In this document: piece after piece, positions 5,124 through 64,000 of the stretch
Layout of the letters: each line of letters begins with the position of its first letter
How positions within the stretch are numbered: the stretch's first letter is position 1
Assembly: GCA_951406725.2 (NCBI GenBank)
Contig: OX597829.1
Location: 47,802,001-47,866,000, forward strand
Origin: Octopus vulgaris
Lineage: Eukaryota
Length of the DNA: 64,000 bases
Reading direction: 5' to 3'
Program-made: the position numbers and the translations under genes
The notes under the pieces: model-generated
Database searches by the model: none
Told to the model about the DNA's origin: nothing
The model's input: the letters and a program-made list of their open reading frames with translations, nothing else

Positions 5124-5168
5124 ACCTCTGATGAAAATCCGATAAGTGTTGAAAATCAGTTATGGGTT
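5124..5168 (+). ncRNA. Decayed hammerhead-like motif
   Basis: CTGATGA at 5128 and GAAA at 5151; stems imperfect. Confidence 0.3.
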
Positions 5169-21331: not shown

Positions 21332-21423
21332 CTTACTGATGAGCTGCGGATGATTAAATAATCAATTAATTATCTTATTAGTTGATTTATTTGGTCAGAA
21401 ATAGCGAAACTTATAAGTATAAG
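21332..21423 (+). ncRNA. Type I hammerhead ribozyme with extended stem II (intact core)
   Basis: CTTA-CTGATGA-GCT..long hairpin..AGC-GAAA-CTTATAAG-TA-TAAG. Confidence 0.75.
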
Positions 21424-24831: not shown

Positions 24832-25188
24832 ATAAATTCTTTAAACGACACACAATCGCTGATCTCGTATAGAGAAAAACAACTCGTTTTAAATCTCTGA
24901 GCGAGGGATATACAGTAACAGTACCGAATAGTAAAGTTTATATGTCAACGGAATGTGGCAGCCCTATAAAGGACGATGTTACTATTGTTTTAGCCCCAGG
25001 AAAATATCTTAGCCTCAGGAAAACACTTAAGGCTAGAGATGGGAGTGATACATCACAACGCGCGTTTCCACAAATCGCTTGTCTCTTAAGATCACAGCCC
25101 GTATTCCTGGGATGATTACAGTGTAGTCCGTAGTATCCGTGGATATCGGGTTGATCATCTTCATGAATTCATTTCTTCATGCGATATA
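24829..25188 (-). mobile_element. PLE-like 3' end with decayed HHR (25052-25116) and GGGGCTAAA motif (24903-25000)
   Basis: ATCAT-CccAGGA-..-GAAA-CGCGCG-TT-GTGAT. Abuts (TA)n. Confidence 0.55.
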
Positions 25189-29666: not shown

Positions 29667-29709
29667 CCACTACAATCGTTTCATGTCTTTAATGACACTC
29701 GTCAGGTGG
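29667..29709 (-). ncRNA. Minimal type I hammerhead ribozyme
   Basis: CCAC-CTGACGA-GTGTC attaaa GACAT-GAAA-CGATTG-TA-GTGG, ~90 bp from (TA)n. Confidence 0.8.
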
Positions 29710-34040: not shown

Positions 34041-34086
<46 letters not shown>

Positions 34087-34088
<2 letters not shown>

Positions 34089-34261
34089 AGTTGTATACTG
34101 TCAACTTAATGTGAGAGTCCCTGAAGGGAATCACACTGCGTTGCTGCTTCCTAGGGCTAAATAGCAGTAGTGTGATTCCCTTCATGGGACTGTCACATAA
34201 AGCTGACAGTATACAACTACTCTATCGTACCACTACTGCATATATCTCTCTGAGATATTTA

Positions 34262-34270
<9 letters not shown>
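34087..34270 (+). mobile_element. Fold-back PLE-like 3' end with GGGCTAAA motif
   Basis: Inverted arms 34089-34137 / 34169-34217, between (GA)n and (TA)n. Confidence 0.6.
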
Positions 34271-34313
<43 letters not shown>

Positions 34314-34380
34314 TGCTCCGGCATGGCCAAAGTCAAATGACTGAAACAAATAAAAGAATAAAAGAATATATATATATATA

Positions 34381-34694
34381 TAGGCAATAATAATTCTCTA
34401 AAAGAGATATAGACAGTAACTGCTCGATAACATAAGGGACTAAAGCCATCTGAATATGGCTAGGGACAGGGCAGGGTGGTGGGGGTGTTACTGTTGCATT
34501 TAGCCCCAGGCGAACATCGACGTCACCAGAAAGGCTCGACACCGTCACGGTGCCCTTAACCTGCAAAGGGTTAAGGGCACCGTGACGGTGTCGAGCCTCT
34601 GGTGACGTCGATGTTCGCCTGGGGCTAAATGCAACAGTAACACCCCCACCACCCTGCCCTGTCCCTAGCCATATTCAGATGGCTTTAGTCCCTT

Positions 34695-34699
<5 letters not shown>
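34381..34699 (-). mobile_element. Young fold-back PLE-like 3' end with GGGGCTAAA motif
   Basis: ~131-bp arms 34429-34561 / 34569-34699, identical apart from a 2-nt indel, 7-nt spacer, within (TA)n. Confidence 0.7.
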
Positions 34700-34729
<30 letters not shown>

Positions 34730-62699: not shown

Positions 62700-62737
<38 letters not shown>

Positions 62738-62994
62738 TTTAACAATTAAGGATAATCTCTTAATAAGGGATCTTAACAAGAAATTATCGGGTAGCTAGCG
62801 TGAAAACCTCATAAAAGAAAAGAATCCGAAAATAATTTTTTTCTTTTGAACAAATTAATTATATCTATATTGTATAGAGGGCATTATTACACATAAATGC
62901 CTCACACTAGGAGGGACAAAGTCATTACTACCAAAATTATACTAATCATACCCAAATGCAGTTTTTCAAAGCAAGACATTTAAAAAATGAATTT

Positions 62995-63052
62995 AGTTCT
63001 GTATCACCGTGATTTCACATACAACTTGCGTCTAATGATCGTCAGCAGAACT
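62995..63052 (-). ncRNA. Type I hammerhead ribozyme (copy 1)
   Basis: AGTTCTG-CTGACGA-stem II with GCAA loop-GAAA-TCAC G GTGA-TA-CAGAACT. Confidence 0.8.
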
Positions 63053-63474
63053 GATTCTGAACACATCATAAATAAACTACCAACCTTACGTAGCGAAGAC
63101 GAACAGACAACTGCTCACTCCGGCCAAGCACATGGAATGTTTATAAATCATATATCCGGTAAATGGCGGGCTTTTTACGAACTGCATGTCGGGTAATGAA
63201 AAGTATTTCGGAATAAGTTTAACAATTAAGGATAATCTCTTAATAAGGGATCTTAACAAGAAATTATCGGGTAGCTAGCGTGAAAACCTCATAAAAGAAA
63301 AGAATCCGAAAATAATTTTTTTCTTTTGAACAAATTAATTATATCTATATTGTATAGAGGGCATTATTACACATAAATGCCTCACACTAGGAGGGACAAA
63401 GTCATTACTACCAAAATTATACTAATCATACCCAAATGCAGTTTTTCAAAGCAAGACATTTAAAAAATGAATTT

Positions 63475-63532
63475 AGTTCTGTATCACCGTGATTTCACAT
63501 ACAACTTGCGTCTAATGATCGTCAGCAGAACT
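63475..63532 (-). ncRNA. Type I hammerhead ribozyme (copy 2)
   Basis: Identical to copy 1, 480 bp away. Confidence 0.8.
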
Positions 63533-63720
63533 GATTCTGAACACATCATAAATAAACTACCAACCTTACGTATCGAAGACGAACAGACAACTGCTCACTC
63601 CGGCCAAGCACATGGAATGTTTATAAATCATATATCCGGTAAATGGCGGGCTTTTTACGAAGTTGTCTGTTCGTCTTCGCTACGTAAGGTTGGTAGTTTA
63701 TTTATGATGTGTTCAGAATC

Positions 63721-63778
63721 AGTTCTGCTGACGATCATTAGACGCAAGTTGTATGTGAAATCACGGTGATACAGAACT
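63721..63778 (+). ncRNA. Type I hammerhead ribozyme (inverted copy)
   Basis: Identical motif; predicted cut after A63771. Confidence 0.8.
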
Positions 63779-64000
63779 AAATTCATTTTTAAATGTCTTG
63801 CTTTGAAAAACTGCATTTGGGTATGATTAGTATAATTTTGGTAGTAATGACTTTGTCCCTCCTAGTGTGAGGCATTTATGTGTAATAATGCCCTCTATAC
63901 AATATAGATATAATTAATTTGTTCAAAAGAAAAAATTATTTTCGGATTCTTTTCTTTTATGAGGTTTTCACGCTAGCTACCCGATAATTTCTTGTTAAGA

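Follow-up and report, generated by a model that had tools for sequence, protein, structure and literature searches.

A non-coding repeat of Octopus vulgaris carries a covarying RNA fold of six helices over ~165 nt, and this fold is probably a cis signal bound by a Penelope-like reverse transcriptase (RT)/endonuclease to start internal copying at two sites. The repeat was followed up from a stretch of 64,000 nucleotides (hereafter the window) in which an earlier note had reported an unassigned covarying motif, read there as either an RT-binding 3′ structure or an unrecognised ribozyme. That observation is real, but the motif is a fragment of a larger unit which can be assigned: judged by its sequence features, the element is a non-LTR retrozyme, a known kind, with a Penelope-like insertion signature. 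Because the copies end at two fixed points inside the domain, the motif likely marks an RT start and not a new ribozyme.

The fold is larger than the motif first described, begins ~50 nt upstream of it and is kept across about 15 sub-lineages. Its helices are P0, P1a (AGCC/GGCT), P1b (GGARA/TYTCC), the long-range helix P2, P4 and a terminal hairpin. RNAalifold run on ragged alignments gave one helix each, and the helices were therefore taken from an unbiased scan of all helices on a structure-blind alignment of 26 copies, where four of them ranked top for double changes. Over the 26 copies (aligned with MAFFT) the six-helix model had 92% of cells paired and double changes in 11 of 31 pairs, which 0/500 shuffles equalled, a figure that is not a P value because the shuffle control ignores relatedness; sliding the model along the alignment as a control gave 30-50% paired. 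When each sub-lineage was represented once, in 15 rows of which two were misaligned in P1, 91% of cells were paired and 13 of 34 pairs had double changes, these pairs including a seventh, weak helix. Within P2, double changes were found in 2/7 pairs among the 26 copies and in 4/7 among the 15 sub-lineage representatives; the loci were chosen by motif, tail or full-length patterns, which inflates both P2 pairing and the counts for the second insertion end site described below. The terminal hairpin showed little or no covariation (double changes in 1/4 and 0/4 pairs in the 26-copy and 15-row sets, respectively), and a 3-bp hairpin round the first end site was not significant (68-381 of 500 shuffles).

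Out-of-sample retention of the helices in families J and K is a stronger test than the shuffles. Both families were found afterwards and lay outside model building, J being detected by the covariance model. In family J, AGCC/GGCT is replaced by AGCT/AGCT, GGARA/TYTCC by AGAGG/CCTCT, and the long helix reads CGACAGC/GCTGCCG; in family K the long helix reads CAGCAAC/GTTGCTG. The compensatory changes in these two families identify CCTRGGGCTAAA, at the level of sequence, as the 3′ side of the upstream two-part stem and not a free motif. Nor is it invariant as had been proposed, since family J has TCTTGGAGCTAAT instead.

Domain folding compared with shuffles gave a z of -3.7 for family C and of -1.3 for family J, whose domain is thus only weakly better than its shuffles. 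Folded as circles, all four monomers beat the mean of 25 shuffles by 21-36 kcal/mol, and their reverse strands also folded less well. The predicted circle has the hammerhead ribozyme of the unit capping a long rod, with the six-helix domain as its branched half. The helices hold G-U pairs and compensate on the hammerhead-sense strand. Neither the helix scan nor a test of RGGG:ATATCYCT pairing found a covarying pseudoknot or crossing helix.

A genome-wide search with the pattern CCTRGGGCTAAA-N1-6-RYAGTAR gave 6,107 occurrences in the microsatellite-rich 2.8-Gb genome, against one for the reversed control. A second, upstream pattern gave 6,910 (0 in the control) at places partly different from those of the first, and the diverged family J yielded 2,895 first-look candidates genome-wide. 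Estimated from these patterns together with DNA searches, the total would lie above 10,000 copies. Monomers are arranged in tandem and head-to-head arrays with a period of 351-360 nt (one of 337), the largest array consisting of nine units in one orientation and four in the other, facing them (9+4), and monomers A-D are only 56-72% identical to each other.

Each monomer contains a type I hammerhead whose stem III is short and whose predicted cleavage site lies 94-103 nt upstream of the motif. The cores were found by script in 8/10 candidate monomers and by eye in a ninth, while the tenth is not a true monomer. Rfam Hammerhead_1 was matched in sub-lineage C with E values of 5.5e-6 and 1.1e-3, both under the gathering score. 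A hammerhead with U-A at the 3-8 pair is active. In 30 of 37 distinct motif-linked cores, those caught by one pattern, the 3-8 pair is Watson-Crick (17 U-A, 13 C-G), with mismatches in the other 7; this pair is catalytic (PMC11167929). Copies that pass the hammerhead run on into the next monomer. The monomer is non-coding, and tblastn at the sampled loci found no Penelope-like ORF linked to motif copies. Family A (L031, window 34384-34699) is the youngest-looking; its hammerhead core, CCGA(C/T)GA (U4C), is without an Rfam match, and a C-rich insert takes the place of one hairpin. A tRNA/tmRNA origin was considered and rejected: no tRNA or tmRNA gene was found in six loci, and TAGCCAGCTGG, which we take to resemble an A box, is without a matching B box in order.

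Insertions of the retrozyme have two preferred 3′ ends. Across families A, B, C and J, 82 of 86 insertion arms end at site 1 (+70 to +82) or site 2 (+114 to +133), with 27/27 in A, 21/22 in B, 16/17 in C and 18/20 in J; a few of these loci overlap, and the J loci were chosen as full-length, favouring site 2. The sites are 43-59 nt apart, site 1 lying in the P2 loop and site 2 after the terminal hairpin. The 5′ ends are scattered, with 3/86 within 2 nt of the hammerhead cut, which suggests that the template is not mainly the cut linear monomer. The RT-binding 3′ structure of the earlier note is thus supported indirectly, by 3′ ends at two fixed sites within or just after the fold and by the covariation.

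Many insertions are fold-backs, in which two arms meet head-to-head. Among 33 of these, 24 have one arm per site, one has both arms at site 2, one doubtful case has both at site 1, and seven were unclassified by script (six were mixed by eye), so that one arm per site holds in 24/26 of the automatically classified fold-backs. Target duplications of 10-15 bp were found in 8/19 fold-backs that do not have (TA)n on both sides, in the layout expected from a cut with 3′ overhangs, and the overlap at the head-to-head junction was -4 to +5 nt in 12 fold-backs. Two 3′ ends, a tail at one end, inversion and target duplication are, as read from sequence, the signature of the Penelope 'tail' with its two start sites. 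Family K (L196-L212), an abundant sub-lineage, differs in its targets, which are AT-rich unique DNA or (GAT)n in place of (TA)n; its insertions show clear duplications of 12-13 bp, and its partner endonuclease may be a different one.

The window contains exact copies of CCTRGGGCTAAA at 34150 (+), 34510 (-) and 25000 (-), where they had first been placed, and a fourth, absent from that account, at 34618 (+) (Table 1). Allowing up to two mismatches gave 16 matches against 4.26 expected, a number attained by 0/100 shuffles, some of the inexact matches being an unrelated common repeat. Both window fold-backs obey the one-arm-per-site rule, the right arm of fold-back 1 bearing the tail and ending near site 2 before (TA)n. 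The left arm of fold-back 2 scored 115.6 bits with model R1, a copy that was in the R1 training set, and the copy at 25000 does not follow the two-site rule, as it reaches (TA)n only ~40 nt beyond site 2.

Table 1. Retrozyme copies, their helices and neighbouring microsatellites in the window
Feature	Position	Strand	Basis
Fold-back 1, left arm; sub-lineage E, 5′-truncated, ends at site 1, no tail	34086..34137	-	BLAST to family E; sequence
Fold-back 1, right arm; 5′-truncated retrozyme copy, motif 34150	34138..34270	+	model R1, 84.7 bits; BLAST
Fold-back 1, right arm, long-range helix	34164-34172 / 34231-34239	+	sequence
Fold-back 1, right arm, terminal hairpin	34242-34258	+	sequence
Fold-back 2, left arm; sub-lineage A, ends at site 2 (+127)	34384..34570	-	98% to monomer A; end mapping
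Fold-back 2, left arm, P0	~34539-34556	-	sequence
Fold-back 2, left arm, AGCC/GGCT	34533-34536 / 34502-34505	-	sequence
Fold-back 2, left arm, stem GGTGAC/GTTCGCC (long-range helix also present)	34522-34527 / 34509-34515	-	
Fold-back 2, left arm, tail	34384-34428	-	
Fold-back 2, right arm; same element, motif 34618, ends at site 1 (+82), no tail, then (TA)n	34569..34699	+	
Single 5′-truncated copy; sub-lineage F, motif 25000, with tail	24835..25020	-	model R1, 92.5 bits; BLAST
(TA)n target microsatellite after insertion 1	34270..34310	.	sequence
Similar (TA)n tracts	34368-34383, 34700-34728, below 24830		sequence

Much of what had been described in the window was recovered. The three long-range helices are seen in the sequence, and their covariation holds in the larger copy sets; terminal hairpins of the ATATCTC/GAGATAT type, fold-backs and (TA)n ends are all present. 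The inner hairpins were confirmed at 34150 and 25000, but at 34510 the first hairpin is absent and a C-rich insert is found instead. The statement that the inserts show no hammerhead holds for the truncated window copies only: these begin at most 60 nt upstream of the motif, which explains why none is seen, whereas full monomers carry one. Conservation of T(A/T)TCG was not upheld, other sub-lineages showing AAAG, GTGT, CCGG etc. at this position, and the suggested RGGG:ATATCYCT pairing was equalled by 254 of 500 shuffles. Rfam 15 gave no match over the domain at E values up to 10; in a scan of the whole window, the 150 of 504 matches listed were microsatellite-driven, of miRNA type and below the cut-off.

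The geometry of the fold-backs bears on how the two ends are made. It is conceivable, although unlikely, that the element is as described here but that a DNA-level process creates one of the fixed ends, or both: an endonuclease would recognise and cut the tail region in the course of resolving a hairpin cDNA that had primed itself, and the helices would serve mainly circle stability or ribozyme folding. Short-arm fold-backs (19 of the 33) divide on this point. In 11 the tail-less arm reaches further 5′, so that the arms are non-nested and neither can be a copy of the other, which argues against resolution of a hairpin, although later deletion at the palindrome centre could be an alternative origin of such arms; in 7 the tailed arm reaches further, the nested arrangement that fold-back copying predicts, and in one the arms are equal. 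Two loci with different flanks (L017, G000:C1:6.756 Mb; L020, C1:7.471 Mb, of which L218 is a duplicate including flanks) have an identical head-to-head junction and arm-specific variants with swapped end sites, as DNA-level resolution would allow; this may reflect gene conversion, or transcripts of both strands may have served to copy an entire fold-back. In the literature, the tail has been attributed to endonuclease-mediated resolution (PMC8557442) and head-to-head junctions to self-priming (PMC3846280), and the Drosophila Penelope endonuclease is described as requiring the tail on DNA (cited in PMC11167929), whereas in vitro work on PAc identified both ends of the tail as points at which the RT initiates (PMC11167929). 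Finally, the G-U pairs, the strand on which compensation occurs and the better folding of the sense circle over the antisense in 4/4 monomers speak against the DNA-level reading.

A more remote reading is that the fold serves some other role (transcription, ligase-dependent circularisation, RNA stability or a host protein) and that ends occur there only because the sites are unpaired, U/A-rich and anneal to (TA)n primers. Abundant, self-paired circles are known from retrozymes elsewhere (PMC7229834), and sites 1 and 2 are indeed unpaired W-rich stretches at which 0-4 nt can be assigned to either element or target. However, the remaining AU-rich unpaired stretches of the monomer were not used as ends in the 86 arms, the ends stay precise in non-(TA)n targets, a rule of one arm per site needs enzyme geometry, and the six loci inspected for a tRNA-like gene had none. 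It is very improbable that the fold gives the unit another self-cleaving ribozyme, so far unrecognised, such as an HDV-like one using the C of GGCUAA (presumably resembling the HDV joining strand) for catalysis: short conserved single-stranded blocks (TRG, AAA, YAY) and the lack of any Rfam family, ribozymes included, at the motif would suit this reading, but that C is paired in P1a with a compensatory change nearby, no pseudoknot or crossing helix covaries, the monomer already has a selected hammerhead with a kept 3-8 pair, and a second cut would fragment it.

Candidates for the enzyme are present in the genome, where 6,136 GIY-YIG candidates were counted (150 of them scored) and intact 781-aa RT-GIY-YIG frames occur whose Cys linker resembles the one reported for Neptune/Nematis (PMC8557442). 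ORF-bearing GIY-YIG/RT elements show a two-end pattern as well: their insertions in (TA)n stop at two points separated by 38 nt, with eight distinct ends without the tail and six with it. Many intact 781-aa Penelope-like ORFs, at L104:1842-4184 and at loci related to it, are accompanied by tandem CCAAT/TGACGTC-rich 3′ repeats, and elements of this type combine a hammerhead core reading TTGATAA with a hairpin tail of 38 nt. Model R1, run over 264 kb (45 GIY-YIG loci plus the window), matched only independent retrozyme inserts. The fold was not found in the pLTR of the 45 GIY-YIG loci scanned, nor was pLTR sequence homology between the retrozyme and Penelope-like elements found in the loci scanned.

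An autonomous parent carrying the fold was not found among the sampled loci. The retrozyme itself was rejected as an autonomous Penelope-like element, the monomer being non-coding and without an RT plus GIY-YIG ORF. Same-strand copy pairs 5.5 kb apart were likewise rejected as a parent: in L117 the two retrozyme copies are separated by a LINE-like element (L117:3200-6300), whose open frame of 751 aa contains an RT, and in L193 the pair belongs to a 5.5-kb segmental duplication, within which there are LTR-retrotransposon-like pol fragments. A 390-nt contig (360+30) was present in 2/4 sequencing runs, as a circular or tandem unit assembles, the RNA status of the runs being a guess. Contigs seemingly intermediate between families A and B were seen in runs X1, X6 and X15 (two organisms), which suggests further sub-lineages.

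In the mechanism that we propose, retrozyme arrays would be transcribed and the transcripts cut by the hammerhead to monomers, which would circularise. A Penelope-like enzyme would nick AT-rich DNA on both strands, ~12 nt apart, and would probably prime from both nicked target strands, the 3′-OH of one strand priming a cDNA that starts at site 2 and that of the other a cDNA that starts at site 1. The two cDNAs would then be joined head-to-head over 0-5 nt, and tandem arrays may result from run-on round the circle or along an uncut multimer. A more specific version, which we advance tentatively, is that the six-helix domain might be a dedicated, telomerase-RNA-like dock for a dimeric Penelope RT-endonuclease, with one start site per nicked strand, so that head-to-head insertions would be two RNA-templated cDNAs with no separate second-strand priming. 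If true, this would give Penelope-type enzymes that act on circular RNA their first defined cis element at the RNA level, and one structure would account for both the tail and the inverted pLTR.

The element shares with animal non-LTR retrozymes, as presented in the available text of Cervera & de la Pena 2020 (PMC7229834), an organisation in tandemly repeated non-coding units of 150-450 bp, each bearing a single type I hammerhead whose stem III is short, as well as GC below 50%, thousands of copies and larger target duplications; units there are 350-390 bp in mussel and 330/350 bp in axolotl. Unlike the animal retrozymes described in that text, it has a covarying multi-helix domain, two fixed 3′ ends, head-to-head fold-backs and frequent U3-A8 hammerhead cores, and it is known here from DNA and not from circular RNA. 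Its resemblance to Penelope pLTRs and their tail, as described in the accessible parts of three studies (Frangieh 2024, PMC11167929; Craig 2021, PMC8557442; Arkhipova 2013, PMC3846280), extends to two 3′ ends that delimit an optional tail, the presence of that tail at one end of the inverted pair (reported for inverted pLTRs in PMC8557442 and PMC3846280), 5′ truncation, AT-rich or (TA)n targets, duplications of ~9-15 bp, and a hammerhead that lies upstream and does not mark the copy ends. In contrast to Penelope elements, the octopus retrozyme is without an ORF and has a tail of 43-59 nt (versus 30-40), and its site 1 lies ~170-180 nt after the hammerhead cut, compared with ~85-90 in PAc (PMC11167929). 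For PAc, the accessible text describes an 'AC-rich stem loop' alone, versus the six-helix covarying fold of the octopus retrozyme; it also reports that both target strands are cut and extended, and predicts a dimer (PMC11167929).

Dependence on Penelope-like elements has been proposed for Xenopus retrozymes as well (Li, Clavereau, Pollet, bioRxiv 10.64898/2026.07.22.740005), and in octopus the retrozyme co-occurs with the intact 781-aa ORFs; the link in Xenopus, in the available text of that preprint, is pLTR homology, whereas in octopus it is the insertion-end signature. As with HDV-like, twister, pistol, hatchet and hairpin ribozymes, a small conserved RNA fold is found inside a retroelement, but unlike these it has neither an Rfam 15 match at the threshold used nor a covarying pseudoknot.

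Other hammerhead-like repeats were observed in the window. A tandem and fold-back repeat with a ~480-nt period (62730-64000) has CTGACGA...GAAA cores at 63013-63045 (-), 63493-63525 (-) and 63728-63760 (+), and gave no match to the model of the motif. A fold-back insert between (TA)n tracts (380-790), of a family also found in L062/L102, has one CTGAAGA hammerhead-like core per arm (525-562, -; 605-643, +). At 21336-21410, a CTGATGA core with a very long stem II follows a GC-rich hairpin region, and further short CTGANGA...GAAA cores lie at 5128, 5479 and 7351 (+) and at 29679 and 50071 (-).

Neither the element class nor the tail and inverted copies are new. A search of titles and abstracts outside Repbase and the subscription journals found no description of the octopus repeat family or its fold, and none of a covarying start-site domain in a retrozyme, of a one-site-per-strand rule or of dual priming; the cis domain of the octopus retrozyme is undescribed and testable. 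How animal retrozymes are copied, and which RNA feature is recognised by Penelope enzymes (sister to telomerase RT), are open questions in the papers cited here. Through the positions of its insertion ends, the octopus family provides evidence for use of the Penelope two-site mechanism by a retrozyme, and it supplies a covariation-supported minimal template of ~165 nt with natural compensatory variants, as well as a countable rule (one arm per site, ~12-bp duplication) by which dual priming can be tested.
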